From Candidatus Nanoarchaeia archaeon (GTDB lineage Archaea > Nanobdellota > Nanobdellia > Woesearchaeales > JACQSR01): a DNA stretch of 64,000 nucleotides. The notes beneath the pieces are model-generated. The model saw only the letters and a program-made list of their open reading frames with translations, searched no databases and was not told where the DNA came from. Of the stretch, positions 21,278-54,202 are shown one piece after another. Location: the NCBI GenBank assembly GCA_035289105.1, contig DATDYF010000037.1:6418-70417 (forward strand), written 5' to 3'. Both the position numbers and the translations under genes were made by a program. Within the stretch, counting starts at the first letter, position 1, and each line of letters starts with the position of its first letter.

Positions 21278-21817
21278 ATGAAAAGAAGAAATATCAACAT
21301 CAAGGAAAAAATAAAAGCGCATTTTTATCTTTACCCCACTGCTAAGCTTAGGGTAAGGCAGATAGAGAAAGAACTTAAGCTCCCTTTGCCTTCAGTTATT
21401 CGCTATGTGAAAGAATTAACCGATGAGGGATTCCTGAAAAAGTCAAGAATAGGCAATGTCGTCTTTTATTCTGCTGACAGAACTGCAAAAGCATTCCTTT
21501 TGGAGAAAAGATTGTTTAATATTAAGTCGTTGCATAACTCTGGCTTGGTTGATTTCTTAGTTGAGGAGCTTAGCAATCCCGCAGTAGTACTCTTCGGATC
21601 ATATTCTAAAGGGGAAGATATAGAAAGTAGCGATATTGACTTATATGTAGAGACCCCATCTAAAAAAGAGGTTAATCTTGAAGAATTTGAGAAGGTATTA
21701 AAAAGAAAGATAGAGGTTTTGGTCTACAAATCAATTGACGAAATAAAAAACAAGGATTTAACAAATAACATAATAAACGGGATTATGGTAAATGGTTTTG
21801 TTGAGGCAATAAAATGA
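21278..21817 (+). CDS. Minimal nucleotidyltransferase (MNT) with N-terminal wHTH
   Basis: Motif 'GSYSKGEDIESSDIDLYV'. Stop overlaps the start of the downstream HEPN gene. Confidence 0.8.
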   Translation: MKRRNINIKEKIKAHFYLYPTAKLRVRQIEKELKLPLPSVIRYVKELTDEGFLKKSRIGNVVFYSADRTAKAFLLEKRLFNIKSLHNSGLVDFLVEELSNPAVVLFGSYSKGEDIESSDIDLYVETPSKKEVNLEEFEKVLKRKIEVLVYKSIDEIKNKDLTNNIINGIMVNGFVEAIK

Positions 21818-22236
21818 AAGAGTCAACGTGGGATGAATGTTTGTCAGAAAACTCCGCCACCCCTTCAACCAGGGACCGAAAAAAAGCCGAATCTCTTCTG
21901 AGAACCTCGGAAGGAAGGGTTAGGTTTTTTGAAATGCAAAGCATCGAGCCGGGAACTGCGAATTATGTTTTTGAAGGGTTGTACAGCTCAGTGCTTGAAA
22001 TGCTGCATGCATTTCTCATTAATGAGGGCTATAAAGTATCGAACCGCATATGTTTGGGATATTACTTAAGGGACAAGTTAAAAAGAGATGATTTATTTAG
22101 GGCTTTTGATGATTTAAGGTACAAGAGAAACTCCCTTGTTTATTACGGCAGGGAAATGGACTTTGAAACGGCAAAACAAGCGATACAAAATTGCAAAAAA
22201 ATGATAAGGGAAGTTAAAGCTTTTGTGAAAATATGA
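21814..22236 (+). CDS. HEPN domain protein (partner of MNT)
   Basis: Translationally coupled to the NTase. 'RYKRNSLVYYG' region homologous to the HEPN at 40916-41368. Confidence 0.7.
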   Translation: MKESTWDECLSENSATPSTRDRKKAESLLRTSEGRVRFFEMQSIEPGTANYVFEGLYSSVLEMLHAFLINEGYKVSNRICLGYYLRDKLKRDDLFRAFDDLRYKRNSLVYYGREMDFETAKQAIQNCKKMIREVKAFVKI

Positions 22237-22284
22237 ATGCTTGGTGCTGCTTTTCATTCCCAATTTCGAGGCTTAACAAGCCTA

Positions 22285-22400
22285 TTATCCCCGAATCATA
22301 GATTTTTTCCAGGTTATGTGCCATTTTTTTGCGAGAAAATTTGGTTTTTCTAGGTTAGGCGTAATTTCAACAATATGTTTCTTAAGAAAGGACAACTATT
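22285..22400 (-). pseudogene. Frameshifted remnant of a third MNT-type nucleotidyltransferase
   Basis: About 100 nt (22285-22385) is about 85 percent identical to 41597-41698 inside the intact NTase gene. The reverse translation 'KKHIVEITPNLEKPNFLAKK' then shifts frame at an A-run and stops. Confidence 0.5.
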
Positions 22401-22608: not shown

Positions 22609-22661
22609 GAAGTGCAGATTCTGCCACAAATCTTTTTAAACAATCAACGAACAAACTAAGC

Positions 22662-25161: not shown

Positions 25162-25437
25162 ATGGCACGAAAAAACGATTATGACTGGATAAAAATAGTT
25201 GCCTTGTTCATATCGGTTGTTGTGGTGCTAATCATAGCAATAAGCATACGGAATGGGCTAACATCGGATAATATACTTTCAGGGGCAATTACCTTTAAGG
25301 GGCCCAACCCCCATTTATATACTGGACCTAATCCTTTCGGGGAACCTGTTGATATGGAAGCAGCTGTTGCTAGTTATTGTGGCAAAGGTATCTTAGATGC
25401 GGCCCTTGAGGCAAATATTTGTGGAGTGCCACAATGA
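25162..25437 (+). CDS. Small membrane-anchored protein (91 aa). Overlaps the start of the giant gene.
   Basis: Starts 'MARK' within 'aaaatggcacgaaaaa'. The same start context 'aaaatggcacggaaaa' recurs at the giant gene. One TM helix. Confidence 0.42.
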   Translation: MARKNDYDWIKIVALFISVVVVLIIAISIRNGLTSDNILSGAITFKGPNPHLYTGPNPFGEPVDMEAAVASYCGKGILDAALEANICGVPQ

Positions 25438-37400: not shown

Positions 37401-38453
37401 CTGCACACAATAGACCAGGCAAAAACTAATTATTGCGGTGCAGGAAGGGGCAGCTGCAAGGAGCCGATACAAGGTGCTAGGGTAAAAGTCTTTGACAGGG
37501 ATAACGCTGACTTCCAGAGCGCGTTCACCAAGAATCCAAGCGGCACTTTATACGATGTGGTCTATGAGTCTGACATTGGCTTGATTGGCAGCTGCATTAC
37601 TGACAGCAGCGGCAGTTGCCTTGCAGTGGAGCAAGGTGCTGGCACTTACCTAGTTATAATCAAATATGTAGACGAGGAAACAAACTCAAATATATATGTA
37701 GGCAGGCCAAAGTCCCCATCTGACTTCGTTGATGTGAATGGCGACGGCAAAAGGGATATGGCAACAAAAGAAATACAAATAATTAAAGTCCTCGAAAAGG
37801 GCGGCAGGATTACCTTTAGGGGAGGAAGCAAAATCGTTGTTACAGGCTCAGAATTAGTGGTTATTTCAGCTGATAATGTGATTTGGATGAATGACAGGGA
37901 AGTTTATCCGTTCATATTCACTTCAGATGCTGACTGGACTGTGGATGTCTGCATGCAAATACCTGCGGGCTACCGAATAGAAGGTGTGCTGGATGAGAAT
38001 GGAAACGTAGTAACTACGGCAAATTGCGCGCAAACGTTTGTATCCGGCGAGGCTAAAGTAGTTATTTTCTCAGTAGTTGAAGTAGGCAGTCCGGAGCCTA
38101 ATTTCGGATTCACATTAACTACAAAGCATAATGGAAAAACTCAAACGGCAAAGGGGACAATAAATGGCATAAGGCAAAAAACGAAAACCCAATTGCAAAA
38201 GCAAATATCAACTAAAGTTAAGGCAGCTAAACAGGAAATAGCTAATCGCCAAGCAAAAAGCCAAACAAAAGAGACAGCTTCTCCACTAACCTCCAGAGCA
38301 GTAATCTCCAGGGCAGCAATGAGTTCAGCAACAGCATCAGAGCCTGTTGCGCCAAATGGAAATCTGACTTTCATATTCGCAATTTCTTCTATAGCCCTGC
38401 TTGTGTTATTGCTGGCAGTTATATATATCTACAAGGAAAGGGCAGCAAGATAA
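25419..38453 (+). CDS. Giant secreted cell-surface protein (4344 aa). Contains signal peptide, parallel beta-helix, three CGDGIDND Cys motifs, C-x9-C repeat array, TSP3-like Ca-binding repeats, MopE-like Cys-rich repeats, CarboxypepD_reg-like domain and a C-terminal TM anchor.
   Basis: Single uninterrupted 13035-nt ORF. N-terminal 'KIRILLLVSLITIISAFSASA'. PbH1-like 'ISNNTIYNV/ISNNSLTNV/ISGNSVT'. 'NCGDGIDNDNDGRIDCQDGDC' appears three times. 'DTDFDTLGDMCDNCDDFNPDQFDRDLDGIGDVCDNDRDGDG'. 'CDGLDNDCDAIVDE/CDSLDNDCDGQADE'. 'GARVKVFD..TDSSGSC..GTYLVI'. C-terminus '..LTFIFAISSIALLVLLLAVIYIYKERAAR'. Confidence 0.9.
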   Translation: MWSATMKMARKIRILLLVSLITIISAFSASAADCGNGIKDCECGDTVVADYTFSSDLVCDGSSGPVSGLVVGSDVQLSCAPDVKIECAPGVKDGGSCETGISISASNDISITGCTIIGWDRGVRIGSGSSNINITLNKILHNIQGILVTGAGNNITISYNTVSGNGVESSPGEGGVLGNCGDGIDNDADTQVDCADSECSFDVLCGGPGQGYFGGSIMVLTVHGQDNIQIIGNTINDTFVFENRGAIHIGGSNGNISNLVISNNTIYNVPLFPGISFSFVGIINLTISNNSLTNVGIGLGFGFAAPVENGIISGNSVTCSGLSATLGDIGMMVAGTADVTGNMVNDCDIGIFATFAGLAPGFVPSPISIDANTVTSNFGTGICTDIAFATLENNVISNGIIGIADLLEEFDPGNWQSGITILFNSYAAVQKEICRVRSPLVGGCLQFAEDALAGTVNLDALCGTGEPPFFCPIQFNFIVGGQLYDAPGGVVYVFKESEAQACGIDTSDGVQDYESGLPFGCQAITQTWTCNGIAGGTCSITLGDPGPAGYVAIAFDHPPGSQPPPSVAGAAVFGESLCGGQVDINEFGGETNCGDGIDNDNDGRIDCQDGDCQGSPSCPGCVVTMNWVDENQQPVNAPYGNILLLSYDEINNDCGIDLSQGVTTDIFQVFGNPCITQVQICGLFSGESLSDGQCVSQVNIAAGDQIVAVAIGSFGAEEIQSVQDSCENGLDDDGNNLVDCADPACAPARNCGPSNSLVGGGIFGPQACGGSATIGPLGGPEGCPLTFTAFGENNNPVPDGSYIFTLETAVISTIPYESPQGSGNFILIDPSDGIDFDEWFGLLIAAQNGPPPGLDGGCISPQGQPIPTSGGTCQGSLGELFPGNPNAPHTVVVLYDDFMNPTQIISQNYNFLTCGGQVIIGESGPEVGDCTITYSFVDGQSQPIDAPNGGVVIFSQNALQACVGTFPPPEPGEEDCNAIFNPSDGVMGGEIRCAFTCPGANVGTCPINLFQGTPGIPGGSCTSTILGSASPDYMIAIALDTFSGPPSLFGTATFTDAECGTEIIPGQVTIVAVGGPPPGALQVLVLEGSNPPVSPPGAIVLAFDATQLEAFLGTAVPYDLSPTQMQNLFADLDLGPGAGQSGFIGGCFGEQGPSPTGANGMCDLSLFFGDPTGPVVVLAFLNLDFQAPDPNFIKTRGVYIDGPPPSPITIIFPALNLFVESVTAASPMVSVTAGATDDTIAYLTLFDGSPFAGAIRIETRAVALRVNAPITEVFEVPDSPSTTGGSLHAFFAQVSPINDLFPQDNVKAEVRPSILASVTSSSSTKSNSVRDFSFTTSVDDYVPSAADSLVIIVPDFGKSKADYSAIAEKLAQSEKRVFVIDPVGYKGTTSTVTTSDPLFKGNNLRKWKEKDRLLPISAQLCALIPQLKAETGLASATIIGDGMGGAIVNTPELVCSAQANALVSTGAYCKPVTFSEGGPKSAVPYFNLKDGKTPCELPPSSVPSLVLQGDEEKPQGDLWFFKFKNKKPVTYGLIQGAQDSFITNSFAGTPEFDNAEIYIKSFIEKETGGAYTQLENDLNLRPELVHLLLEDVRANDDAVKPKDTLVSNDGFNLFAIESADLSSTPTGWAVGSVVDIEDVKDDFANFMTNALKISAGEATQKVFVKGSFENPDSGQLVLNYKVLAPSTNPVDSSAKLRLDFKDMQGNSLACIEFHSTNLPVSSTCSFAIAVSSGNDGRIQEISNIPVSEILKSVGAFTTKIFSVDIEISSDSPFYYDDVELLLEEDVLEVNEADFLDLTSHTATFTSPIININAGEQLTSILPLFVAEDGASITADVLDEFDIPIISGIELNSAANLMAFHETLKGLDSLKVRFNLDPGVTLYKYYVVAKPVDVFDTNINGVEVNSLLLDEQGSHSDYSVAFNLNNPGDFDLISAGETLSSDAISFGVGEIYNRVVKTDNSITRSDANNGITETDVSSSSGTVDSFITLFDSSVDTITQDINFGAGCHVEVDDVVMTSAFTTNKLIDIVCPNEEFTLTPFYGASNIELNEVKVDPVDATKDTVGDLDKLEVRDDSALTKTAGESVLEEGYDFSLLQDFLQNDIYQFLLDNGINDSLTQFFKNQLDKSADGVLKRDQVLETAFLGLLGGDNNFSTIMDTEVQFTATGIRLITRTQGNSILSRTIGISSSLNSDRFSIKGPGLAEGKCTSTRAIVLESSLITPKGLSVSDCVDIFVRGESKDLAQDVNSIDQLAKEAVSPRLDKEMVDTVLDSAKDNVTPRRGVISIGGSFDMRDSTISALDDLGFIGISVAGNSFVENSEVLDFQYFQSSAGCNFIGSVFESSAIDLLEEENRNAAENRNSEQLDFARQFHGVSCSSVDTGPANALDQSPSGNYKPSDVATSSVAEATLKIFEMDDPCVLSVAEGGSVCDKVLADLNARDVPITIRSFGEAADQLNLADIAFNQDLTNIKVSEIGKIPSSLSSITFKGIPLDQIMATDILDEINNNQKIDEVNAIRTNIENTGIDNNADELLTEGEEIAQPGLLDANLAPVSYSGLMVETPVEDLDVCLLSLPDGTGICDVRIDQDTIIEDLGITLCGLKRNGVSICNIITDDLNDNPTLDTVGYEAEYQVSKNGDVDVSELSLGDLAIGDRGDSVPFTALDTSINNVKFCDLQLEGVSVCNVVAGKTAVEQATDFTGLDAFDIIQKLENIPDIRESDYTGSFDYLMENLNFCANYAGYIDAELRKENNLDYLRVDKSFKFGNVAKLHIDGMCSVQLDQTSLCDLEGNDVYGPVIQNSAAISDSCNNAAGDFGSCVTNLKELNSCQLTIGGVSVCSVEVSKGLINDQTVYAGFNITKLQINGLCALAYKGISICDTSIDKVFNFTESQGTLEAATGEELISACDLTFNGINLCSGHQFDDEFCDQAKIDGVSVCNSRWDNRLVDDELITEAAQGQVFNDARDGGTFGDEQKQRLLRPSVCDLEINGTTLCDAVALVTFTNTVLPGESPADFVLDHTVLEFVSMDETKVNLLLIELGEKCNELFINVTDIINKTIPNIEHKGVPLSEMTLCDDVEINGLSLCDANLVLINDSDILDVVLNGDVVGQMDLRALLTNLVFALTYDVGGETFNDATGTIGDILDLREVRLGSSNLLDNVLLSSNSIRNSEVDVLTRLFMDYSIGTLSKPQRTLTFDNKKAIEVLDITLNSYDQFNLDCAIAKEIQSKVDLEGTEIDSPISKVELCDVFGIPTPLSNAQFGISSYSPPIGSLKEGSLTVNLNSVEFSDFTLETLYNLTEFDSETCDIHNNEFTDAAVSINCELSATGNNFFGKDLSDGGDLILGSPGALVVAVPDDDDKVEISGNRFNFNHMGGPGLVGAAEVDVSKNDFVDPLFNAQYITDSRNYLEQFIVKENLDTVDINDNVLVDRVESRISRDEAKELANTADKYNLVDDRYADLASDRSEIAELNRALSQLNDIDIESIQLTNEIADMFGIDISRVETLLNRELTPIDISNLDVDNTLNIERNYYRGFNSVRAYLPELIIPGNLNFATETSVFIYPKKRVSFVGNAIVDNPPIKIKSKEAIDISKVLLLNNFRAGCEIDDAAGMRNCADVELSTMAEPPEISGATAASLDRDEDTVPNHVDNCPFTPNTGQEDTDFDTLGDMCDNCDDFNPDQFDRDLDGIGDVCDNDRDGDGIANPADACPNAFDPGNSAEICSGCVDLDADTFYAFDADECTGGNDCDDSNAAANIFRLEACNNLDDNCNGQTDESVLQRCGASDVGECTFGVEACSAGSYIGCTAILPTAEVCDGLDNDCDAIVDEGIAPQQCEVTDAGECRFGLRSCEGGAFSSCVGNIDPVAEICDSLDNDCDGQADESAAGGDLTEVCGTDVGACQTGVRTCSAGGFGVCVGEIAPVGETSLACNNIDDNCNGVIDDGYDRDDDGFTSCDTPKPDCNDNDRSINPDAPERCNDGIDNNCDGKVDFGDTVNCPAADKVSVELHTIDQAKTNYCGAGRGSCKEPIQGARVKVFDRDNADFQSAFTKNPSGTLYDVVYESDIGLIGSCITDSSGSCLAVEQGAGTYLVIIKYVDEETNSNIYVGRPKSPSDFVDVNGDGKRDMATKEIQIIKVLEKGGRITFRGGSKIVVTGSELVVISADNVIWMNDREVYPFIFTSDADWTVDVCMQIPAGYRIEGVLDENGNVVTTANCAQTFVSGEAKVVIFSVVEVGSPEPNFGFTLTTKHNGKTQTAKGTINGIRQKTKTQLQKQISTKVKAAKQEIANRQAKSQTKETASPLTSRAVISRAAMSSATASEPVAPNGNLTFIFAISSIALLVLLLAVIYIYKERAAR
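33108..34670 (+). repeat. Array of about 11 degenerate C-x9-C repeats (consensus C-D-L-x-h-x-G-h-S-h-C-D/N) inside the giant protein
   Basis: VCLLSLPDGTGICD, LCGLKRNGVSICN, FCDLQLEGVSVCN, MCSVQLDQTSLCD, SCQLTIGGVSVCS, LCALAYKGISICD, ACDLTFNGINLCS, FCDQAKIDGVSVCN, VCDLEINGTTLCD, LCDDVEINGLSLCD. Confidence 0.6.
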
Positions 38454-40915: not shown

Positions 40916-41368
40916 TCAGGGAGACAATCCTTTTTCCTTTATTATTCTATCAATCTTTTTGATGATGCCGTTATGGAAATCCAATATTTCCTTGGCTTCC
41001 TCGACGCTGACGGTTTGGCCGTAATACTTTGAGCCGTTTCTTTTGTATCTGAACCTATCGAGCGTTTCCAGCATTTGTATATTAAAATTGAATTTTGCAA
41101 GATAGGCAAACGAAGCCTGATGGGAGTAGGATTTATAACCTTCTATTGCTAAAACTGCGTCTGCAAAATCCCTAAGCGCGTCATAGACATTCTCAAAGAC
41201 GATTTTTGGGTAGTTCTGGGTCAACAGTGACTTCGAGTCCTTGATTCTGCTATTCATATCCCTAACAAGTGATTTTGCTAAAGCTAAATCGGGCGCTGCC
41301 TTTTTTACTTCGCCAATCTCAAGGTAATAGTCAAAAGGTTTCATAATCAAGGTAACCAAACAGTACAA
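40916..41368 (-). CDS. HEPN domain protein (partner of MNT)
   Basis: 'FRYKRNGSKYYGQ' paralogous to 21814-22236. Overlaps the upstream NTase gene by 38 nt. Confidence 0.7.
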   Translation of the reverse strand: MYCLVTLIMKPFDYYLEIGEVKKAAPDLALAKSLVRDMNSRIKDSKSLLTQNYPKIVFENVYDALRDFADAVLAIEGYKSYSHQASFAYLAKFNFNIQMLETLDRFRYKRNGSKYYGQTVSVEEAKEILDFHNGIIKKIDRIIKEKGLSP

Positions 41369-41861
41369 CCCCGTTTATTAGGTTGGTATAGAGCTCTTTT
41401 GGAATCTTTCCGTTCTGAACCAGCAGGATATGAATGCCCCTATTTAACATTTTCTCAAATATTTTCGTACTAACCGAATATTTTTCGGAAGTTACTACTG
41501 CAATATCTATGTCGCTTTTCAAGACATCCTCTCCTCGAGAGTAACTTCCAAATAGGATTATGGCTTTCGGGTTGTAGTGCTTTCTCAAAAAGTCTATTAC
41601 CCCGGAATCATAGACTTTTTCCAAGTTATGCAACCTTTTTTTTGCGAGAAAATGCGGGTTTTCTAGGTTTGGCGTAATTTCCACAATATGCTTCTTAACT
41701 TCCCTTTTAACCAGGCTTTCCTTTTCCAGCTCCTCAAGGGCATTAAGGACGCTGTTAGGGTTTACATGGATTTCCCTTGCAAGCTCCCTTATATAGAATT
41801 TCCTGGAGGGATTGTCAAAAATCCTTGAGATTATTTTCTGTTTTACATTCATTTTATACAA
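41331..41861 (-). CDS. Minimal nucleotidyltransferase (MNT) with wHTH
   Basis: Motif 'GSYSRGEDVLKSDIDIAVV'. Paralog of 21278-21817. Confidence 0.8.
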   Translation of the reverse strand: MYKMNVKQKIISRIFDNPSRKFYIRELAREIHVNPNSVLNALEELEKESLVKREVKKHIVEITPNLENPHFLAKKRLHNLEKVYDSGVIDFLRKHYNPKAIILFGSYSRGEDVLKSDIDIAVVTSEKYSVSTKIFEKMLNRGIHILLVQNGKIPKELYTNLINGVVLFGYLDYETF

Positions 41862-41899
41862 TTGTATAATATTTTATACAATTGTATATTTAAATGTTT

Positions 41900-42521: not shown

Positions 42522-42944
42522 CTATTCCTTCGGCGCTTCCGGCCTTATCTTGGGCAACGGTATTGGCGGAGGCAGATTTACATCCTGGCTTAGGATTAAT
42601 GCCTGAACATTGCATTTTGTAAGAACCGTGTTAAGAATTTCCGTCATTATCTCCTTAGGCACTCTCTTGTCTTTCTTCCAGCCCTCCATTATTTCTTTGG
42701 AGCGCTTAGGGTCGGACATGAACATTGTTGAGCCGCCAAGCATAATGCTTCCAATCTCGGGGTCGTATTTTGAGGTGAATTCAAAAGAAAATTTCAGCGT
42801 ATTCTGCTTTTCCTTTCCAAATGTGACATCCTGCGGCTCTATGTTCACAATGGAAACATTGTTGCTTATGTTAATCTTTCCGCCCTTTCCGATATCCGAT
42901 TTAGTGACATTGATTTTGTTGAATCCAAACCCGACTACTGCCAT
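42522..42944 (-). CDS. Hypothetical protein
   Basis: 140-aa ORF with no recognised family. Confidence 0.45.
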   Translation of the reverse strand: MAVVGFGFNKINVTKSDIGKGGKINISNNVSIVNIEPQDVTFGKEKQNTLKFSFEFTSKYDPEIGSIMLGGSTMFMSDPKRSKEIMEGWKKDKRVPKEIMTEILNTVLTKCNVQALILSQDVNLPPPIPLPKIRPEAPKE

Positions 42945-43009
42945 GAAACCACCTCTGATGCAGGTAATTAGCGTTGTTTAAAAAGATTTGTGTGGTAGGA
43001 TGCAAGAGC

Positions 43010-43264
43010 TTATTTCATTTCAATATTCAAAACACTCCTATTTGCCTCACTTTGGACTACCTTCTCAAAGTCCGAAAATTCTACAGTTGTTGCGAGAAAA
43101 ACCCTGCCAAATAAGTCAGTGTTAGCATACTTATAGGCGCAACTCTCATTACCATTTTCAGCATGAGCATATTTTCGTTGGCCATTCACGATAACCAGAG
43201 CAACTTTGCCATGAGTTATTGGATCATCGCAATATTCGCAAGGGTGATACATTTTTTCTGCCAT
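43010..43264 (-). CDS. Small Cys-containing (zinc-ribbon-like) hypothetical protein
   Basis: 'HPCEYCDD' ... 'ESCAYKY'. 84 aa. Confidence 0.4.
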   Translation of the reverse strand: MAEKMYHPCEYCDDPITHGKVALVIVNGQRKYAHAENGNESCAYKYANTDLFGRVFLATTVEFSDFEKVVQSEANRSVLNIEMK

Positions 43265-43314: not shown

Positions 43315-43863
43315 TTAAAACTTGTATATGCATTTCACAACAGCCTCCCCATTCCTCTTAAGGCTGGAACTTATAGCTAAAAATTCAAGAGTCGGGGCAG
43401 AAGCACACTCCGAAGGCTCGCCACGTTTTGCACAATACATAACGGAAGATAGCTTCATAGCACCTTGCGAGATGACCTTATATTCACGAAACCCTTTAAC
43501 CACATCTTCTATCCCTTTTGCAATCTCCTCATCAATTGTAAAAGAAAGAACTTCAAATTCACCTCCTCCTTTTGTAACCATGTGCCATAGCATATCTCTT
43601 AATACAGGTTCACACATGTCCAAATCGTCTAAGTTTGCCAAGCCCGAGTAATTTTTGGCCTTTTCACCGACAAGAACTCCAAAATATGGGGGGAGTATCT
43701 TTGTGAATAGCTTACCATACTTATCATGGTCGTTTATTACAGCGTAGCACCTTGGCGGAATTACCAAAGCCCCGCGAAAAGTCCACAAATCTTTTTGATA
43801 CGGGACCTCAATTAACTTAAGACCACCACTTTGATTCGCTTCTAAATTTACAGTATCTTCCAT
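43315..43863 (-). CDS. Hypothetical protein
   Basis: 182-aa ORF with no recognised family. Confidence 0.45.
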   Translation of the reverse strand: MEDTVNLEANQSGGLKLIEVPYQKDLWTFRGALVIPPRCYAVINDHDKYGKLFTKILPPYFGVLVGEKAKNYSGLANLDDLDMCEPVLRDMLWHMVTKGGGEFEVLSFTIDEEIAKGIEDVVKGFREYKVISQGAMKLSSVMYCAKRGEPSECASAPTLEFLAISSSLKRNGEAVVKCIYKF

Positions 43864-43972: not shown

Positions 43973-46243
43973 ATGGAGCCCGCACGCAGCCTAAAAAACG
44001 TGGAATTGGAGGATATTCGCAGAAGGCTAAGCTATATGGGCGATGACCCGGAAACTATCGAAGACAAGATAAGGGAAGCGGAAAGAGCGGAAACATTGTA
44101 TAATGAGGCTTTTAGGTTAAGGCACGGGGAGAACGGCTTAAGTATTGGTAAAATAAGCAAAAGGTTAAACGTTTCATATGGAACAGTTTGGGGCTGGTTG
44201 TATGGCGGAGCGAAACCTGCCGGATTAAAGGGGGTAACCCCAACTTTCAATATTCCTCAAGGCAAATCTGCGGAGTTTGCATATGTCTTGGGGGTATACG
44301 CTGCTGTTGCCCAATGCGGAAAGGATTGCGGATATTTTAAGAGCAAAAAAAGCGGAGGTTTTTTGGTGCACAGCAAAACTGAGGCGCACCTGCACCCTTT
44401 AAAGGAGTCTCTTGAATCCATATTAAACAGCAAGGCGGATATTAAAGAAGAACAAAGGAAGGGTGGCAATTATAGGTTTCTGCGTTTCCCTTATGAGCTC
44501 CGGAGATATTTGAGCTTTATGTCCGATAAAAACCAGAATGTTATATGGGAACACCTTTTTTCGGATGAAGAAAAGATTTCTTTTATTAACGGATTTTTGG
44601 ATTACCGTGGAGAATTTCGCGAAAAACCCGCCCCATTTGTATTAATAGAAAAGCAGAATGGTTATTCTTTAATTGAGGATATTGGCCTGCTCTTTTCATC
44701 GCTTGGCATAATACCCTCCATTCATTATAAAACGATGCTTTGCATCCTGGATAGTGGCGATATTCATAAGCTGGTTAAATACAGGCCAGCCGATGCAAGG
44801 GCTCAAAAGTTAGGGGACATCACCCCTGCACCAACCCCGGAACAAGATGCTATCGGGGTTTTCTCAAGATTTCAAGAGCTCCATGGAGCTAATGGCAAGA
44901 TGCCTTTGTATAGGATTGCAAAATTACTGGACGTCAATTATAGCACTATAGCAAACTGGAACAAGGGTGCCCTGCCACATAGGGTCCGCAATTATCGAAG
45001 ATTATTGGAAATAAGAAAAAGTAGGGGGGATGTTGATGTAATTGGCTTTGTTTATAGGAATATCAAACAGGATTCAGAATTTGCAAGGGATGTGGCATTA
45101 AGAAGAAGCCATAATGAAGTACTCAACAGCTACAATCAGATTCTAAGGGATGCTGAGCCAAGGGCCCACCCAGAACTGATATATTTAGGGGGTGAAAAAT
45201 TGAAGAAGGCAATAACTCAATTAAAACGGCAAAAAGCAGTTGCCAAAATAGAAGCAGTACAAGAAGATAAAGTTGATAAAACCGAAGCAAGGCGCTATGA
45301 AGGTGGAGCAGATGAAACCCAGGGCAGGCTAAAACTCATAAGAGAAGCTCACCAAAAGTACTTGTTAAATAAAGCATCCCGGGAGCAGTCCCAAGTTTCA
45401 TTAGGCCCGCCCTTAAAAAGCGATGAAATACTTGCATATGCTAAAGTTATTGCAGGGGATGGGTTAAGGGTTTCTTCAAACGGGGGAGATAGGCTTAACG
45501 AAGTCATAAACACATACATCCGTTCCAATGATTATTTTACTCCAAACGAGGCTTATTTGTTTGTGTCAGAATTGTTATGCATTAGGACAAGGAATGGTAG
45601 CCATAAAGACATAAAAACAGGCATGAAATCGCTAGAGGCAGTAATGAACAGGAAAGAATTTGATAGTTATTTTTATCGCAACGGAAATGGAGTGTACTAT
45701 GAGAAACTTGCAAAAGGGGAAATATTGTCAAAACTTTCAGGGCTTCTCTCAAATTCAGATAATGGTTCAAAAATATATGGCATTAACAATCCAAATTCCG
45801 ATTATACATTCGCTGAGGGGGGAATAGAACTTTTTGCTGATGACGAATCAGATGGCGCATCTTTATTGGGCGCTGCCGATGGAAAAGACAAATTAGCCGA
45901 TGCCAATGTTAGGCAGGAAGATAGGGGAAATCGAAAATTATACTGGGCAGCAATACGGGAAAAAGACGAGGGACCGCCAGGAAATAACGAATTTTATGCC
46001 ACTCCCGGAGAGGAGGCGAAAGGAATTAATAAACTGTTAGGCCATCTTCTAATGTACGCTGTAAGAGAACTGGATGGAGATAACTTAACTAAAAGGGAAG
46101 ATGCACGTGAATGGTTTGAGAGTACTGATGAAAAATTTCTTTTTTCGTTCTTGAATATTTGCGATTACCTAGACCTTAACCCTGATTACGTTAAGAAGCA
46201 AATATATAGCCCTTCGAGGGGAAACCTCCGTTTTGTAGATTAG
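43973..46243 (+). CDS. Large hypothetical protein with HTH motifs and degenerate LAGLIDADG-like dodecapeptide pair
   Basis: 'AEFAYVLGVYAAVAQCG' and 'KISFINGFLDYRGEF' resemble the two LAGLIDADG motifs. HTH-like 'LSIGKISKRLNVSYGTVWGW' and 'LYRIAKLLDVNYSTIANW'. 756 aa. Confidence 0.55.
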   Translation: MEPARSLKNVELEDIRRRLSYMGDDPETIEDKIREAERAETLYNEAFRLRHGENGLSIGKISKRLNVSYGTVWGWLYGGAKPAGLKGVTPTFNIPQGKSAEFAYVLGVYAAVAQCGKDCGYFKSKKSGGFLVHSKTEAHLHPLKESLESILNSKADIKEEQRKGGNYRFLRFPYELRRYLSFMSDKNQNVIWEHLFSDEEKISFINGFLDYRGEFREKPAPFVLIEKQNGYSLIEDIGLLFSSLGIIPSIHYKTMLCILDSGDIHKLVKYRPADARAQKLGDITPAPTPEQDAIGVFSRFQELHGANGKMPLYRIAKLLDVNYSTIANWNKGALPHRVRNYRRLLEIRKSRGDVDVIGFVYRNIKQDSEFARDVALRRSHNEVLNSYNQILRDAEPRAHPELIYLGGEKLKKAITQLKRQKAVAKIEAVQEDKVDKTEARRYEGGADETQGRLKLIREAHQKYLLNKASREQSQVSLGPPLKSDEILAYAKVIAGDGLRVSSNGGDRLNEVINTYIRSNDYFTPNEAYLFVSELLCIRTRNGSHKDIKTGMKSLEAVMNRKEFDSYFYRNGNGVYYEKLAKGEILSKLSGLLSNSDNGSKIYGINNPNSDYTFAEGGIELFADDESDGASLLGAADGKDKLADANVRQEDRGNRKLYWAAIREKDEGPPGNNEFYATPGEEAKGINKLLGHLLMYAVRELDGDNLTKREDAREWFESTDEKFLFSFLNICDYLDLNPDYVKKQIYSPSRGNLRFVD

Positions 46244-46295
46244 AAGGTTTTTCCAGGCAAACATTAAAAAATACGCTTTATTACTCCATCTTCCC

Positions 46296-46448
46296 ATGAA
46301 ATACAAACTCGTCTGCTTTGATGTTGACGGCACGCTAATAGACGGAGTTGAATTCAGCTGGACTCATCTACATAATTACTTCAATGTCGATATTAAAGAT
46401 TTGCGAATCGCCATAAATCGAATTAAGTCTAAATCTTTATATACTTAA
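46296..46448 (+). pseudogene. Duplicated 5' fragment (50 codons) of the HAD hydrolase gene at 47299
   Basis: 46292-46400 is about 90 percent identical to 47295-47403, including the 5 nt upstream of the ATG. Encodes MKYKLVCFDVDGTLIDGVEFSWTHLHNYF.. then diverges and stops. Confidence 0.5.
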
Positions 46449-46496
46449 AACTACTACCTAACAGTAAGGAAATCCTTTTGGAAATCCCATGTCAAA

Positions 46497-47267
46497 ATGA
46501 TTGATTCTGCAAGAAAACATCTGGAAGAGGGCATTTCTAGAATTATTAATACTGATTCCATTGACAAAAAAATCGAAGATACTGCATCGTTATATGTCGA
46601 ATGCTTTGAAATGGAATTAGAGAAAATCAAGAAATTCGGGCAGCAGGAGAGGGTCTCTTATATTACCGGGCTAAGAAATGGGAGGCTTCAGGGCACAGAC
46701 AAAGGATTAAGGGAGGCTAGAAAAAGGACAAATGAAAAAGTTTCTTCTTTGCTTAATGCGCTGTACGATGGTGCAAAAAATATGGAAGAGGAACCGAAGC
46801 GAGAGATTTATGCACCAGTCAATAAAATAAGGGGGATGCTGATGCTGCGCGAATCCATCACAGGAGGGAAGGAAAGCCCTATTGAGAAAGACCTGGAGAA
46901 ACGCATTCCTGAGATTTCGGTAAAATCACAGGGAAAACATGCCGATGTCAGATACCTCACTGATTTGTACACAGCGTGCTATTCAGACTGCTTTGGCAAT
47001 GCAATAGAAAGCATCAGGGCCATGGCTGAAGTAAACCAAAAAGCCGTTTATGACATAGGCGAATCATTCGGCCGGGTACAATATTTCTTCAAAGAGAGGA
47101 ATAGTGCAATGCTAAGCTTATCTGAACAGATAAAACAATTGCTCACCGAAGTTGATGTCGCAGTCAGAAACCTTCAGCCTGAACAAAAACAAAAAATTTA
47201 CATGGCGACAAACAGCATCAGGCTAGCCCTAAGCCCTGATAAATATTGGCCGGTAAGCAGACAATAA
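46497..47267 (+). CDS. Hypothetical protein (cargo between the duplicated HAD 5' ends)
   Basis: 256-aa ORF with no recognised family. Confidence 0.5.
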   Translation: MIDSARKHLEEGISRIINTDSIDKKIEDTASLYVECFEMELEKIKKFGQQERVSYITGLRNGRLQGTDKGLREARKRTNEKVSSLLNALYDGAKNMEEEPKREIYAPVNKIRGMLMLRESITGGKESPIEKDLEKRIPEISVKSQGKHADVRYLTDLYTACYSDCFGNAIESIRAMAEVNQKAVYDIGESFGRVQYFFKERNSAMLSLSEQIKQLLTEVDVAVRNLQPEQKQKIYMATNSIRLALSPDKYWPVSRQ

Positions 47268-47298
47268 GGCTTAAAAGCCAAACGCCTATTCATTTCCC

Positions 47299-47952
47299 AT
47301 GAAATACAAACTCGTCTGCTTTGATGTTGACGGCACGCTAATAGGCGGAGTTGAATTCAGCTGGACCCACCTCCATAATTATTTTAGGGTTGATTTGAGG
47401 GAACGTGAAGACTGGAAGGAAAGATTCTATAAGGGGAAGATAACCTACCTTGAGTGGGCACTGCATGACATAGGAATGTGGATTGAGAAGGGAGCAAAGA
47501 AGGGGGATTTTCTAAAGGCAATCTCTGTATTCAGTTTAATGCCTGGCGCCAGGGAGACTCTTACCGAGCTGAAGAAAAAAGGCGTAAAGCTTGCAATTAT
47601 ATCCGGCTCTCTTGACTTTATCTTGGAGCATTTCATACCAGACTACAAAGAGATATTTGATGATGTTTTCATAAGCAGGCTTATTTTCGGAAAAGACGGC
47701 AAAATAAAAGAGGTCAAGGCAACGCAGTATGACCAGGACAGGAAGGCAGACGCTTTAAGGCTTGTTGCAAAGAAGCATGGCTTTTCATTGAAGGAATGCG
47801 CATTTGTGGGCGACCATGAGAATGACATCGAGATAATGAAAATTGTGGGCAAGGGAATTGCGTTTGACTGCAAATCAGATGAGCTGAGAAAGATAGCGGA
47901 TGTTGTTGTTAAGAAGAAGGATTTGAGGGAGGTGCTGAAGCATTTGAGCTAA
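47299..47952 (+). CDS. HAD-IB hydrolase, phosphoserine phosphatase-like
   Basis: Motif I 'CFDVDGTL'. 'GDHENDIEIM' motif IV. 217 aa. Confidence 0.7.
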   Translation: MKYKLVCFDVDGTLIGGVEFSWTHLHNYFRVDLREREDWKERFYKGKITYLEWALHDIGMWIEKGAKKGDFLKAISVFSLMPGARETLTELKKKGVKLAIISGSLDFILEHFIPDYKEIFDDVFISRLIFGKDGKIKEVKATQYDQDRKADALRLVAKKHGFSLKECAFVGDHENDIEIMKIVGKGIAFDCKSDELRKIADVVVKKKDLREVLKHLS

Positions 47953-48007
47953 ATTCGTGTATGATTTTTTGGAAAAATTTATATAAACTAACTGTTATGC
48001 GGGTTTT

Positions 48008-48514
48008 ATGCTGAAAGTTATATTTGACACAAACATTTATGGGTTCTTGCTTAAAGAGGTGGATGCTACTGAGATTGAAAGAAAAATAAGCCAGGATAAG
48101 GAATTTGTTGTATATGGCTATCCATTGATAAGGAAGGAGATTCGAGACATACCAAAAGTCACTAAGCTCAGCAAAAAGACTAGAATTCTTTTGTTGGGCC
48201 TTTACGACAGAATAACTGGCAACCATTTTCTTGAACATTCCATAAGGATTACCAGTCTAGCTAGAAAATACTACGATTACTACAGAAAACTTGGGGGAGT
48301 CTATGGGTGGGATACATCTGTTCGAGTTGATTTTATGATAGTTGCATGTGCAAGTTTTCATGGGCTTGATATTGTATACTCTGCAGATAGCAAAACACTT
48401 CTTGGAAAGCATGCTTTGAAAGCTTATAAGCACATAAACCTAAGGGAGAATTGCAGAACACCCAATTTTCTGGAATATGAAGACCTGCTTGGAAAACTCA
48501 GAAGCCTAGTTTAA
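48008..48514 (+). CDS. PIN domain protein (VapC-like nuclease)
   Basis: 'VIFDTNIY' N-terminal acidic motif. Later conserved D residues. 168 aa. Confidence 0.65.
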   Translation: MLKVIFDTNIYGFLLKEVDATEIERKISQDKEFVVYGYPLIRKEIRDIPKVTKLSKKTRILLLGLYDRITGNHFLEHSIRITSLARKYYDYYRKLGGVYGWDTSVRVDFMIVACASFHGLDIVYSADSKTLLGKHALKAYKHINLRENCRTPNFLEYEDLLGKLRSLV

Positions 48515-48749
48515 TTTATGAACAGAAGTTGATGCTTTAATGAACCTGTTGATTTCCCTAACAAAATCCGGGTCTTTCTGGGCCTCCATTATAGCATCCA
48601 ACAATTCTTTCTGCGTCATACGGGGTATAGAAGATATGCCCCTATTTAAAATTTTGCCTGCTAAGGATAGATTTGAGGGAGGTGCTTGGGCACTTGGGCT
48701 GATGGGTTCGCAAAGATTTAAATGCAACCCCTATTGAAAAAGGTAAGGG

Positions 48750-49106
48750 ATGACAAACAAAATCATAAAAACCATTCAAATTATAAGGGATGCAATTCTT
48801 GTTCTCTTTTGCACCCTCGCAGTTTTTGTAATACCAACCACTACAAAAGGTGCACCTATGGGAGATGCTCAAAAAATGATAGTTATCCTATTTGGAGCCA
48901 TAGCCTTTCTTCTGCTTTTGGATTTAATCTTTGCCATAATCAAGAAAGCATTTTGGTTTCAGAAAACAATTAACGGCTTAACACTCATCCCCATGTTTAT
49001 TATAACTGGATTTGGGATTGGCGGGGGAAACATAGCGGTGATTGTCATTGGGTCGCTGTTTATGTTGCTTAGCATTGTAATGCTAATCGGAGTTAAAAAA
49101 CAGTAA
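48750..49106 (+). CDS. Hypothetical integral membrane protein
   Basis: Three or four hydrophobic helices. 118 aa. Confidence 0.5.
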   Translation: MTNKIIKTIQIIRDAILVLFCTLAVFVIPTTTKGAPMGDAQKMIVILFGAIAFLLLLDLIFAIIKKAFWFQKTINGLTLIPMFIITGFGIGGGNIAVIVIGSLFMLLSIVMLIGVKKQ

Positions 49107-49139
49107 ATATTTTAAAGCCAGTTTCGCTACCCTTCAATC

Positions 49140-49715
49140 ATGGAAATAGCAAATTTACAGCAAAGGGTAAGGGAAAACTTCTACCTCAGCGGAACCAGGA
49201 TTGCAGGAGTAATGGAAGGGCGGGAGCCGTACGAATGCAAAGTCAAGAACGCTTGCTCTGAAATCGAGATTGAAGGGGATTTGGCACTGCACCACCGGCT
49301 TTCCATCGGACCCGACCACGTTCTTGTCTGCAAGACACCTCTTCCTGCAGAGGTTTTAAATGGCATTAATGGGCTCCTGTATAGCCAAGCAGGCAATCTT
49401 ACAAATCAAGGGATAGAAGAGCTTAAGGCCATGGCTGGACTTACTGCAACTACTTATATTCTAATTTATCAAACTTCGCAAAGGACAAGCATAGTAATGT
49501 CTTATTCGCCTGTCACAAGGGCGCATAAAAATCTCGAAAAGGTTGCAGGATTCAAAAGCTACGAAGCCGTTTCAGTCCATCCGGTTGAAAGGAAAAAGGA
49601 GGACGATGATGTGCTCCGCGCCCTTATCGATTCCGTAGCTTCAAAGCCATTTTTTTCCGTGGCAAAAGAAGTTAAAAAAAGAAAAGGAATTCTAGAAAAG
49701 CGTCTTGGGGATTAA
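49140..49715 (+). CDS. Hypothetical protein
   Basis: 191-aa ORF with no recognised family. Confidence 0.45.
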   Translation: MEIANLQQRVRENFYLSGTRIAGVMEGREPYECKVKNACSEIEIEGDLALHHRLSIGPDHVLVCKTPLPAEVLNGINGLLYSQAGNLTNQGIEELKAMAGLTATTYILIYQTSQRTSIVMSYSPVTRAHKNLEKVAGFKSYEAVSVHPVERKKEDDDVLRALIDSVASKPFFSVAKEVKKRKGILEKRLGD

Positions 49716-50489: not shown

Positions 50490-50492
50490 GGC

Positions 50493-50517
50493 AGCTCCGG
50501 AAATCTTCCGGTTTTTT
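50493..50517 (+). terminator. Conserved hairpin AGCTCCGGAAATCTTCCGG (CCGGAA-atc-TTCCGG) plus T6, copy 1
   Basis: Begins 4 nt after the tatD stop. The same 17-mer recurs at 53375 and 54146. Confidence 0.5.
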
Positions 50518-50556
50518 CTGGGAAGAGTTTATATTTATGAAAGTATAACCAACCTT

Positions 50557-52834: not shown

Positions 52835-52947
52835 TTTTCCTCTTTTTCTGGATTTATAGCTGCTTGTTTTTAAATCTCTTTTGGTTCCGGAAATTCTCTG
52901 GTTTTTCTCGGGTAAAATATATAAAGAGCATTTTTAACCTAACTGCC

Positions 52948-53376
52948 ATGTTAAGCGGCAAAGAGTCAGAGGTGCTTTTGTACCTCCGGGAGGATGCAAG
53001 AAAAAGCCTTGCGGAGATATCAAGGGAGTCTGGAATTCCTGTAGCAACGGTGCATGGCATTGTCAGGAGGCTGAAAAAGAGGGGAATCATAATCAAATAT
53101 GCGTCTCTCATGGATTTTCAAAGGATTGGATATAGCTTAAGGGTAATGATGGCTATAAAGACTGATAGAAAAGCTGAGGTAATGCGGCATTTGTCAAGGC
53201 ACCCAAATGTAAACTCGCTTTCCAAGGCTGCTTCCGGGTGCGATTTCTGCATTGATGCCGTTTTCAGGCATTGCGGGGAGCTGGAACTATTCAAGGAAGG
53301 GCTTCAGAAGTTCAATATAACCTATATCGGAGAGCATAACATGGTTGAGGAGATAAAGGCAGAATCCTCTGTTTAG
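52948..53376 (+). CDS. Lrp/AsnC-family transcriptional regulator
   Basis: HTH 'ARKSLAEISRESGIPVATVHGIVRRLKKRGII' plus RAM domain. Start set at an internal ATG. Confidence 0.78.
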   Translation: MLSGKESEVLLYLREDARKSLAEISRESGIPVATVHGIVRRLKKRGIIIKYASLMDFQRIGYSLRVMMAIKTDRKAEVMRHLSRHPNVNSLSKAASGCDFCIDAVFRHCGELELFKEGLQKFNITYIGEHNMVEEIKAESSV

Positions 53377-53393
53377 CTCCGGAAATCTTCCGG
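53375..53393 (+). terminator. Conserved hairpin AGCTCCGGAAATCTTCCGG, copy 2 (overlaps the TAG stop of the Lrp gene)
   Basis: 17-mer identical to copy 1. Confidence 0.45.
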
Positions 53394-53464
53394 AATTTAT
53401 GGGTTAAGGTTTTTTAAGGGGAGAAGTTTTCATTTCAGCCATGGAAAAGCCTTATACATACCTA

Positions 53465-54133: not shown

Positions 54134-54145
54134 GTTGAATTTTGT

Positions 54146-54167
54146 CTCCGGAAATCTTCCGGTTTTT
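54146..54167 (+). terminator. Conserved hairpin CTCCGGAAATCTTCCGG plus T5, copy 3
   Basis: Begins 13 nt after the relE fragment stop. Confidence 0.45.
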
Positions 54168-54202
54168 GAGGGGAAACGCTTATTAAAAGATTTTTCCTTC
54201 CT

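Follow-up and report, generated by a model that had tools for sequence, protein, structure and literature searches.

Why should a single gene lie between a stub of its neighbour's 5' end and the intact neighbour itself? In the window, by which I mean the whole 64-kb stretch of DNA that was analysed, the first codons of a HAD-IB gene occur twice in the same orientation, once as a fragment and once at the head of the full-length gene, and a gene for a 256-aa protein sits between the two:

46291 to 46363, plus strand: copy 1, identical tract; HAD codons 1-23 and the 5 nt that precede the ATG
46364 to 46400, plus strand: copy 1, diverged part; HAD codons 23-35, apparently of another allele, where HAD likeness stops
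46296 to 46448, plus strand: 50-codon pseudo-ORF; 35 HAD codons, then 15 unrelated codons
46497 to 47267, plus strand: 256-aa gene, resident upstream neighbour of HAD, with a positional homologue in the relative L009
47294 to 47403, plus strand: copy 2; start of the full-length HAD-IB gene (47299-47952)

Pairwise alignment bore out the original prediction of a direct repeat that includes the ATG at the HAD 5' end: a repeat finder gives 101 nt at 91% (46291-46391 versus 47294-47394, spacing 1003), within a total extent of 46291-46400 versus 47294-47403. The predicted 50-codon pseudo-ORF and the single 256-aa ORF between the copies are also there, at 46296-46448 and 46497-47267. Self-blastn of the window aligns 91 nt at 94.5% (E 7.6e-34), which makes this one of two significant dispersed repeats in 64 kb, and tblastn matches HAD residues 1-35 to 46296-46400 at 86%. 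Both copies begin 5 nt ahead of the ATG (TTCCC ATG) and their likeness fades at about codon 35. The downstream gene (47299-47952) matches the HAD-IB model TIGR01488 with 75.1 bits, for a cut-off of 45, and the FDVDGT motif (DxDxT) is kept in it as well as in the copy 1 fragment. The pseudo-ORF, annotated as a 50-aa gene in every assembly, is better annotated as a pseudogene fragment. An assembly chimaera was considered and is ruled out by recurrence of the same layout in at least eight independent assemblies from at least six samples, among them Logan contigs that run from copy 1 through to copy 2. Samples with this population are, for example, SRR2090153, SRR3989344, the source runs of ERZ27254752/767 and JGI 3300002502.

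The two copies do not differ evenly along their length. In five strain assemblies (L001, L002, L003, L005, L006) the 73 nt of 46291-46363 and 47294-47366 are 100% identical; the window and L004 have a single mismatch in this tract (46342 A versus 47345 G), and copy 2 carries A at 47345 in five of the seven strain assemblies. Over the following 37 nt the copies are only 65% identical (24/37). Six of the 13 codons in this diverged part differ from the resident HAD at synonymous positions only, and the replacements are I/L, K/R, D/E and N/R. Since the differences are mostly synonymous or conservative, copy 1 appears to have diverged within a working HAD gene, and the pattern indicates that it is a piece of another, once-functional HAD allele and not a decayed local duplicate. 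The abrupt passage from 100% identity over 73 nt to 65% looks like a later gene conversion between the HAD 5' ends.

L009 (GCA_016211215.1) is the closest relative, with a HAD 83% identical to that of the window. Copy 1 agrees with it at 89 of its first 105 nt and copy 2 at 84 of 105, so that the 5' fragment is about 85% identical to L009 (73% within its diverged part), on evidence that spans 37-105 nt. The proposal of recombination with a related allele is thus supported, both by the synonymous and conservative changes and by the slightly closer affinity of copy 1 to L009. Upstream of copy 1 there is a weak likeness to the HAD promoter region (p 0.13 for copy 2, p 0.018 for L009), which plays no part in the argument. 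A competing account, that tandem duplication or slippage within this genome copied the start of HAD and the upstream copy then decayed, with no part for foreign DNA, would explain the 73 identical nt and the truncated upstream ORF. It seems to me scarcely credible, because neutral decay to 65% beyond the tract would not be expected to leave the frame intact and the changes mostly synonymous or conservative, because copy 1 is not more distant from L009 than the functional HAD but in fact nearer, and because the segment and its source do not lie in tandem. An intact first copy in relatives had been named as the sign of tandem gene duplication rather than insertion; none was seen, and tandem HAD paralogues occur only at a distant locus, L065.

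The original prediction treated the 256-aa gene as cargo. L009 argues against this, for its gene order 140(-), 241(+), HAD, 118, TatD has, in the corresponding place just ahead of the HAD TATA box (GGCTTAAAAG), a gene for a 241-aa homologue (29% identity over 196 aa, E 1e-18). The upstream regions of the 256 and 241 genes align, as do the HAD TATA junctions, and on the far side of the L009 gene there is no HAD fragment and no flanking repeat. This homologue, the sole relative of the 256-aa protein that was found, came to light through synteny: a word-indexed search returned only the protein itself, a scan of metagenome and viral contigs with the 256+241 alignment gave no match, and searches for a family or structure gave none either. 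To the suggested check of whether the protein is always flanked by HAD fragments elsewhere, the one relative found answers in the negative, and the gene should not be annotated as mobile cargo. The two proteins share 29% identity versus 77-97% for their neighbours, and it is conceivable that distant 241/256 homologues were acquired independently at one site.

The reading in which the 256-aa gene is cargo after all requires a circle of about 1 kb, made up of this gene and about 105 nt of a HAD start, that entered by a single crossover, either homologous or site-specific. Its target would have been a HAD 5' end formerly lying right after the gene for a 756-aa protein (described below), the target segment would have been duplicated, and a PIN-like gene beyond HAD, together with the genes adjacent to gatE, would be further such cassettes. 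The direct repeats, with 73 nt identical, do bracket the 256-aa gene exactly, the 29% identity of 241 and 256, far below that of the flanks, is what separate acquisition would give, and deeper relatives have no gene between the 140-aa gene and HAD. Such a cassette is nevertheless improbable in my view, as the L009 241-aa gene is in place without a HAD fragment and the 256 family was found nowhere else. The suggestion of site-specific target duplication in particular is undercut by the searches: Pfam, PHROGs and NCBIfam reveal no recombinase or transposase domain in any ORF between 42.5 and 50.5 kb, and duplicated HAD ends are absent from about 70 other HAD loci. Under a site-specific reading the segment TTCCCATG...68 would be the one on which a recombinase acts.

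What, then, is new at this locus? The answer lies to the left of copy 1:

42522 to 42944, minus strand: conserved 140-aa gene, left flank of the hotspot; 79% aa identity to L009
42789 to 42936, no strand: strain-level recombination tract where the 140-aa gene begins, next to the island; 15-18 clustered, codon-spaced SNPs
42982 to 42990, plus strand: left copy of the 9-nt AAAGATTTG; left edge of the island, overlapping a promoter-like region of the 140-aa gene
43010 to 43264, minus strand: 84-aa ORFan gene in the island; absent from L009 and L013, no family match
43315 to 43863, minus strand: 182-aa ORFan gene in the island; absent from relatives, no family match
43973 to 46243, plus strand: 756-aa gene, island member; HTH, degenerate LAGLIDADG-like domain, HTH, long C-terminal extension
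46395 to 46403, plus strand: right copy of the 9-nt AAAGATTTG; where the HAD fragment meets the upstream region of the 256 gene

In at least ten deeper relatives no gene separates the 140-aa gene from HAD (the two lie divergently, about 100 nt apart, in L014, L042, L044-L046, L048, L049, L054, L058 and L059), and other inserts occupy the same spacer in L013, L050 and L052. Given this adjacency in the deeper relatives, the spacer appears to be an insertion hotspot. The material specific to the window comprises the 84-, 182- and 756-aa genes and the HAD fragment, which sits at the right edge of these lineage-specific genes; together they make 3,413 bp, and the direct repeat AAAGATTTG brackets exactly this unit. 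No match between the two junction regions is longer than this 9-nt repeat (p ~0.015, both with shuffled sequence and with random window pairs, for regions picked post hoc). It is promoter-like, with four occurrences on the plus strand of the window, and the motif recurs in the genome. Around the left copy (42982-42990) the sequence ahead of the 140-aa gene loses its likeness to L009.

The left flank carries a trace of its own. Between the window and L001/L004 there are 15-18 differences in roughly 150 nt of the 140-aa gene's 5' end, as against about 12 sites across the remaining 10-12.8 kb aligned. The clustering shows homologous exchange at the 140-aa flank with a lineage about 10% diverged, but both alleles of this tract carry the island, so the exchange need not belong to the insertion event itself. 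Exact-protein look-ups with the 256-, 140-, 118- and 50-aa products found neither an empty site nor a donor haplotype, nor the hoped-for strains lacking 46497-47267, every population assembly having the same layout; the predicted pre-insertion junction TTTAAAAAGATTTGCGAATCGCCATAAATCG has no exact match in the metagenome collection, and no relatives of the 182-aa or 756-aa proteins turned up among viral contigs.

I therefore favour, with a probability of about 0.55, the explanation that copy 1 is a non-functional 5' remnant of a second HAD allele, left as the scar of illegitimate recombination at a gene-insertion hotspot, and, at the same odds, that the donor of this allele belonged to a related lineage nearer to L009. 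As neither an empty-site nor a donor haplotype was found, the order of events is a reconstruction. Ancestrally the 140-aa gene (minus strand) and HAD (plus strand) would have stood back to back, about 100 nt apart, the arrangement seen in those ten or more relatives. Judging by position and homology, the common ancestor of L009 and this lineage may then have gained a gene of the 241/256 family just ahead of the HAD TATA box. A related donor would have held the 84-, 182- and 756-aa genes in the same spacer, directly upstream of its own HAD. When donor DNA entered, one side would have paired homologously in or near the 140-aa gene, and the other end, about 100 nt into the donor HAD, would have joined at the microhomology AAAGATTTG and not at homology, just upstream of the promoter of the resident 256 gene; this would be homology-facilitated illegitimate recombination. 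The gain would have been 3,413 bp, three genes and a hitch-hiking HAD 5' fragment, with the resident 256-aa and HAD genes left intact. Later gene conversion between the two HAD 5' ends would have given the 73 identical nt, and a comparable event on the opposite side may have left a HAD 3' fragment on an L009-like block with a 118-aa gene, beyond the PIN-like gene.

The largest island gene had been described as LAGLIDADG-like, a label that stands only in part. A word-indexed search found no relatives of the 756-aa protein; exhaustive HMMER searching found 92 remote ones, and of 24 aligned, seven match Pfam LAGLIDADG_3 (PF14528). The label has indirect support from the relatives, but the protein itself has no direct Pfam LAGLIDADG match, only HTH_23 (E 1.5e-7), and its two motifs, VLGVYAAVAQCG and INGFLDYRGEF, both lack the canonical acidic residue, here and in its relatives. 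In this family that residue stands at the end of each motif. A single-sequence AF2 model is poor (pLDDT 44), its first half being ordered alpha-beta-beta-alpha-beta-beta-alpha; with Foldseek it has no significant match in the PDB (I-DmoI at E ~0.4), and PDB sequence searches with the LAGLIDADG-like region gave chance matches alone. The protein is probably a DNA-binding protein rather than a nuclease.

These properties bear directly on whether the island could have spread by homing, a process in which the 756-aa protein would cut close to the beginning of HAD wherever its own gene is missing, and repair would copy the island together with flanking donor markers, the 5' ends of HAD and of the 140-aa gene. 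The LAGLIDADG_3 matches among its relatives, the HAD fragment right beside the 756-aa gene and the co-conversion-like tract in the 140-aa gene would all suit such an event. I regard it as very improbable all the same: besides the missing acidic residues, the absent Pfam match, the poor model and the insignificant I-DmoI matches, the relatives lack the 756-aa gene, and homing by itself would not be expected to produce a truncated duplicate.

The other end of HAD has its own scar, and it is here that the remnant-at-a-hotspot explanation meets its most serious competitor:

48008 to 48514, plus strand: weakly PIN-like 168-aa gene (PIN E 0.071), between HAD and the second HAD fragment
48670 to 48703, plus strand: second HAD fragment; last 10 codons (DLREVLGHLG) and stop of an L009-like allele
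48670 to 49156, plus strand: L009-like block; HAD 3' fragment, 118-aa membrane-protein gene (48750-49106), first codons of a 191-aa gene

The PIN-like gene is absent from L009, where HAD runs straight into the 118-aa gene, and in L001, L003, L004, L005 and L006 it is broken by 48143 C>T (CGA to TGA). The second HAD fragment, found in all strains, is 84% identical over 31 nt to the resident HAD end (47920-47950) and aligns with the HAD end of L009. With it begins a block of 487 nt (48670-49156) that has 17 mismatches to L009, or 96.5% identity, where flanking orthologues have 72-80%; this block is evidently a recently exchanged segment.

The same facts can be read in the opposite sense. A foreign piece of 2.27 kb (46404-48669, holding the 256-aa, HAD and PIN-like genes) would have landed in an older order of island, HAD_old and 118, replacing about nt 101-621 of an L009-like HAD_old whose 5' and 3' ends remain as the fragments, with the incoming HAD keeping up the function. 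Both scars would then stem from a single event. The fragments are indeed complementary, non-overlapping ends in the right order and orientation around 256-HAD-PIN, each of them resembles L009 more than the resident HAD does, and the adjoining 118-aa block is L009-like. I rate this reading as possible but unlikely. Two illegitimate joins would have to fall within a single gene of 654 nt; the backbone (140-aa gene, CDC48, TatD) is 72-80% identical to L009, like the resident HAD at 78.5% and unlike the fragments; and likeness to L009 is unequal, about 85% for the 5' fragment (73% in its diverged part) against 96.5% for the 3' block. The 9-nt repeat at 42982 would moreover be a coincidence, and the SNP tract in the 140-aa gene would go unexplained.

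Comparable scars lie elsewhere in the window: two gatE 3' fragments and an internal fragment of a nucleotidyltransferase gene. Repeated ends of the conserved gene next door flank an AAA_14 ATPase gene and a UPF0175 gene, as they do the PIN-like gene, which is what the cassette reading would have. The fragments measure about 105, 31, 62, 45 and 115 nt, however, and one is internal to its gene; such variable lengths (31-115 nt for the repeats), together with the internal fragment, do not fit a fixed crossover site. A circle would also have had to place its junction exactly at the island edge marked by the 9-nt repeat. The gatE locus showed no presence/absence variation in the population look-up, and duplicated gene termini (3/96) versus internal segments (10/701) form an underpowered comparison made up mostly of 16-17-nt chance matches. 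A broader version has single genes (the 256-aa, PIN-like, AAA_14 ATPase and UPF0175 antitoxin-like genes being the candidates) travelling on small circles with a short copy of a conserved gene's end, inserted at that gene end by a recombinase of the host or from an unlinked locus, so that displaced ends accumulate in arrays. I consider this trans-acting mode of gene gain very doubtful; if true, it would resemble an integron without attC sites, aimed at gene termini.

Most likely, then, the locus is an ordinary scar and not a working device or a target-duplicating mobile cassette, and no new molecular machine is implied. It matters as a legible record of gene gain in a genome-reduced DPANN archaeon (a Woesearchaeota/Nanoarchaeia population genome). 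A spacer between two conserved genes appears to have been refilled repeatedly, with illegitimate joins leaving stubs of neighbouring genes, and diverged relatives seem to swap short tracts there, including the 487-nt block that is 96.5% identical where about 78% is found otherwise. With four loci of this kind in 64 kb, the lineage seems to use this additive route often, which bears on how DPANN genomes remain small yet variable.

Integrative elements of the tRNA-gene or protein-gene type have their attachment site in a gene end and carry a replacement gene end. As with these, the DNA lies between direct repeats of a gene end, and its target gene is intact; unlike them, the locus has no integrase, a repeat-free positional homologue in L009 and variable repeat lengths, and about 70 other genomes show no reuse of the target. 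Flexible genomic islands, whether replacement or additive, have conserved genes at their borders (Lopez-Perez et al. 2014, PMC4033161). The fixed position between conserved genes, the varied gene sets and the recombination tracts in flanking core genes are common to both, but here the inserts are of one to few genes, the host is a reduced-genome archaeon and the illegitimate junctions are visible. In the orphan-module arrays of T6SS, Rhs and CDI loci, new DNA beside a conserved gene displaces older material (Kirchberger et al. 2017, PMC5361080). Their truncated gene ends, separated by single small genes, resemble the gatE 3' fragments and the two HAD fragments; unlike those arrays, this locus shows no toxin-immunity logic, and its genes are of housekeeping type (HAD phosphatase, gatE), with pieces of 31-115 nt.

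The closest parallel is homology-facilitated illegitimate recombination, which the account in PMC5361080 presents, with its orphan-fragment footprints, as documented in bacteria (it cites de Vries & Wackernagel 2002; Prudhomme et al. 2002; Meier & Wackernagel 2003). So far as that account goes, the process was shown experimentally only in naturally transformable bacteria, whereas here it is deduced from the sequence of an uncultured DPANN archaeon. The homologous anchor is suggested here only by the polymorphic SNP tract. The process is not known from DPANN archaea. As in the process so described, one homologous flank would have served as the anchor (here the 140-aa side) and the other end would have joined at a short microhomology. 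As there, too, genes are added along with a stray piece of the next donor gene, and at this locus the added DNA is contiguous with a diverged-allele fragment of the neighbouring conserved gene, the HAD fragment beside the 84-, 182- and 756-aa genes.

The window carries a direct repeat at 46291-46391 and 47294-47394 (101 nt, 91% identity, 1003 nt apart, by repeat search of the window), which self-blastn aligns over 91 nt at 94.5% (E 7.6e-34); the 64 kb contain just one other significant dispersed repeat. TTCCC opens both copies 5 nt ahead of the ATG and the likeness stops near codon 35, with 46296-46400 matching HAD residues 1-35 at 86% at the protein level. The original prediction of a repeated HAD 5' end, pre-ATG nucleotides included, flanking a 256-aa gene is upheld. 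An assembly artefact is excluded, since eight or more independent assemblies, drawn from several samples, share this layout. Its elements are:

46296-46448, 50-codon ORF, the continuation of the upstream copy (copy 1)
46497-47267, 256-aa ORF, between copy 1 and the downstream copy (copy 2)
47299-47952, intact HAD-IB gene, passing the TIGR01488 model

Protein names place the window in a Candidatus Nanoarchaeia/Woesearchaeota metagenome-assembled genome, that is, in a DPANN archaeon. Among 5.8 billion proteins the nearest other HAD is P0003 (83% identical), on contig L009 (GCA_016211215.1), the closest relative locus, and no intermediate relatives were found in that collection. The order in L009 is HEPN-like 142 aa (-), nucleotidyltransferase 173 aa (-), 331 aa (-), 140 aa (-), 241 aa (+), HAD (+), 118 aa (+) and TatD (+). 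The 241-aa protein is homologous to the 256-aa protein (196 residues, E 1e-18), the two genes occupy the same position with ~60 nt alignable 5' of them, and the 241-aa stop codon lies within the TATA-like element GGCTTAAAAG that in both loci immediately precedes the start of HAD. No HAD fragment lies beyond the far side of the 241-aa gene in L009. With a homologue in the same place and no repeat, the 256-aa gene appears not to be the cargo that had been proposed. What the window additionally holds between the 140-aa and 256-aa genes is an 84-, a 182- and a 756-aa gene plus the HAD fragment; further right, a PIN-like 168-aa gene and a 191-aa gene are extra. The first ~17 nt alone of the 191-aa gene (ATGGAAATAGCAGATTT) remain in L009, followed by TatD. 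Insertion of the 256-aa gene as a cassette would suit the mere 29% identity between the 241-aa and 256-aa proteins and the lack of a 256-family gene in deeper relatives, but is weakened by the repeat-free L009 locus.

The spacer between the 140-aa gene and HAD has a history of its own. The HAD alignment, scanned against the genome collection, returned 80 loci, and in L014, L042, L044-L046, L048, L049, L054, L058 and L059 CDC48 (-), the 140-aa gene (-) and HAD (+) adjoin one another, the divergent start codons of the last two lying ~100 nt apart. Other spacers hold a 5.7-kb metal-resistance cluster (L013), ~3.4 kb (L052), ~0.4 kb (L050), the 241-aa gene (L009) or 4.35 kb (the window), differing contents which argue that the spacer has been filled independently many times. 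No second copy of either HAD end was found in ~70 HAD loci, just 13-20-nt chance matches; thus the HAD start is not a recurrent attachment site.

Where, then, did copy 1 come from? Position 47345 in copy 2 is A in five of seven strain assemblies, and with this base the copies agree at all of their first 73 nt and at only 65% of the next 37 nt. The G/A polymorphism gives Gly16 in the window and in strain assembly L004 and Asp16 in the other strains; Asp is found in at least 90% of HAD homologues and is the copy 1 state. The site may thus be where a conversion tract ends. Read directly from the copy sequences, 6 of the 13 codons in the diverged 37 nt differ only synonymously (ACT/ACC, CAT/CAC, CTA/CTC, TAC/TAT, TTC/TTT, GTC/GTT), with N/R, I/L, K/R and D/E as the replacements, in an open frame. 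Such changes are the mark of two genes separating under purifying selection; a duplicate made on the spot and then decaying is contradicted by this codon pattern. The 50-codon ORF exists as predicted. Copy 1 matches L009 at 89/105 positions and copy 2 at 84/105. Most simply, copy 1 is read as a fragment of a different HAD allele, in which gene conversion with the resident gene later homogenised a 73-nt tract. The suggestion of recombination with a related allele is supported by these synonymous or conservative differences and the greater nearness to L009.

A second HAD fragment lies on the other side. The last 31 nt of HAD are repeated at 48670-48700, past the PIN-like gene, and encode DLREVLGHLG*, the L009 HAD C-terminus; the resident HAD ends ...KHLS*. 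This fragment begins a 487-nt block that is 96.5% identical to L009 (8622-9108):

48670-49156, HAD 3' fragment, 118-aa membrane-protein gene and first codons of the 191-aa gene

Elsewhere, identity to L009 is 72-80% (140-aa gene, HAD, CDC48, TatD) or 87.5% (toxin-antitoxin-like pair). The excess of the block over its 72-80% neighbours therefore points to recent DNA transfer between lineages, with one tract end inside a HAD gene. A single event, in which the 256-aa, HAD and PIN-like genes landed together inside an older L009-like HAD, would explain both HAD stubs at once, but it needs two illegitimate joins within one gene and is at odds with how the backbone genes have diverged. The PIN-like gene is being lost in the population; 48143 C>T turns its codon 46 from CGA to a stop in 5 of the 7 strain contigs covering the site.

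At the junctions, copies of AAAGATTTG spaced 3,413 bp apart (42982-42990 and 46395-46403) flank the unit specific to the window, which consists of the 84-, 182- and 756-aa genes and the HAD fragment. A match of such length between junction regions, which were picked after inspection, has p ~0.015 by shuffling and random window pairs, and the 9-nt motif is part of a recurring promoter-like sequence; it is suggestive of microhomology. A 19-nt TTGTTTAAAAAGATTTGTG, which contains this repeat, is identical at 22625-22643 (minus) and 42974-42992 (plus), with 0.08 expected by chance; both copies lie in promoter regions, one belonging to the 140-aa gene and the other to a HAD-like gene at the edge of a 19-kb island. 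Between the window and strain assemblies L001 and L004 there are 15-18 SNPs, codon-spaced and all within the first part of the 140-aa gene (its 5' end, 42789-42936), against only ~12 differing sites over the rest of the aligned 10-12.8 kb (otherwise 99.9% identical). The tract stops 8 nt short of the start codon. Its confinement therefore indicates homologous exchange with a ~10% diverged lineage at the left flank of the insert.

The 756-aa protein (43973-46243) could have driven the insertion by homing. Exhaustive HMMER searching gave 92 remote relatives, and 7 of 24 match Pfam LAGLIDADG_3, which makes the predicted "LAGLIDADG-like" label reasonable. However, the canonical acidic residue is missing from each of the two motifs, in the relatives as in the protein, the protein itself has no LAGLIDADG match, and its structure model is too poor for use; a DNA-binding protein is more likely than a homing enzyme. 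Residues ~680-750 match stand-alone 73-160-aa proteins in exhaustive search (E 1e-4 to 1e-6), and the protein therefore fuses at least two modules.

Comparable scars occur elsewhere in the window. The last 14-20 codons of gatE (10362-11789, -), at 10368-10432, have two extra copies, at 8521-8583 and 8990-9041, and the fragments are separated by:

8598-8768, UPF0175 antitoxin-like gene, 56 aa
9098-10357, AAA_14/DUF4143 ATPase gene

The fragments are more alike each other than the resident gatE end; both read MELV and the resident MEVV, so they come from other alleles. An internal 115-nt piece (41584-41698) of a nucleotidyltransferase gene (41331-41861) recurs 19 kb off, across the island, at 22272-22385 (residues 55-92, 85% identical to the gene). 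The fragments in the window measure ~105, 31, 62, 45 and 115 nt, one being internal to its gene. These variable lengths, the lack of recurrence and the absence of any recombinase from domain scans of the genes at the locus speak further against a cassette, and leave the proposed site-specific element duplicating its target unsupported.

The 19-kb island, absent from L009, carries a HAD-like gene, a B12-radical-SAM gene, a single 4,344-aa ORF (25419-38453; G+C 0.44-0.50, ~0.42 elsewhere) and an MMPL transporter gene. At its two ends lie oppositely oriented, paralogous nucleotidyltransferase and HEPN-like pairs (21278-22236 and 40916-41861; ~35% and ~28% identical), the right-hand one 87.5% identical to L009, above the genome background. 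A 34-nt near-perfect palindrome (94%) lies at 41855-41888, between the nucleotidyltransferase and methyltransferase genes. A 46-nt intergenic family (50490-50535, 52880-52925, 53372-53417, 54141-54186) has in each member a CTCCGGAAATCTTCCGGA hairpin and, after it, a TATA-like run; one member also matches L009 (54147-54231), and the elements are probably combined terminator-promoter units.

Most likely, the pieces of the locus fit homology-facilitated illegitimate recombination. In a related lineage, the donor, the three genes of the insert would have lain immediately 5' of HAD; the donor DNA would have paired homologously on the 140-aa gene side, its other end, ~100 nt into the donor HAD, joining at microhomology just upstream of the resident 256-aa gene's promoter. 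Such an event would have added genes and left a HAD 5' stub while sparing the resident HAD and 256-aa genes; a comparable right-hand event would account for the 3' stub and the L009-like block attached to it. Of this account, the sequences show the synteny, the hotspot, the allele-like character of the fragments, the exchanged tracts and the lack of a recombinase, while the sequence of events, the anchor and the joining at microhomology are inferred. A recurrent system of gene-end-targeting cassettes, or a 1-kb circle that excises, is very improbable; were either real, the locus would gain interest. No new mobile element or mechanism is indicated. Homology-facilitated illegitimate recombination and its orphan fragments are described for bacteria in PMC5361080 and references therein, and recombination in the flanks of variable islands has also been described (PMC4033161). 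The locus clearly exemplifies a type of genome scar that is already known, found here in a DPANN archaeon and accompanied by several others within the 64 kb.
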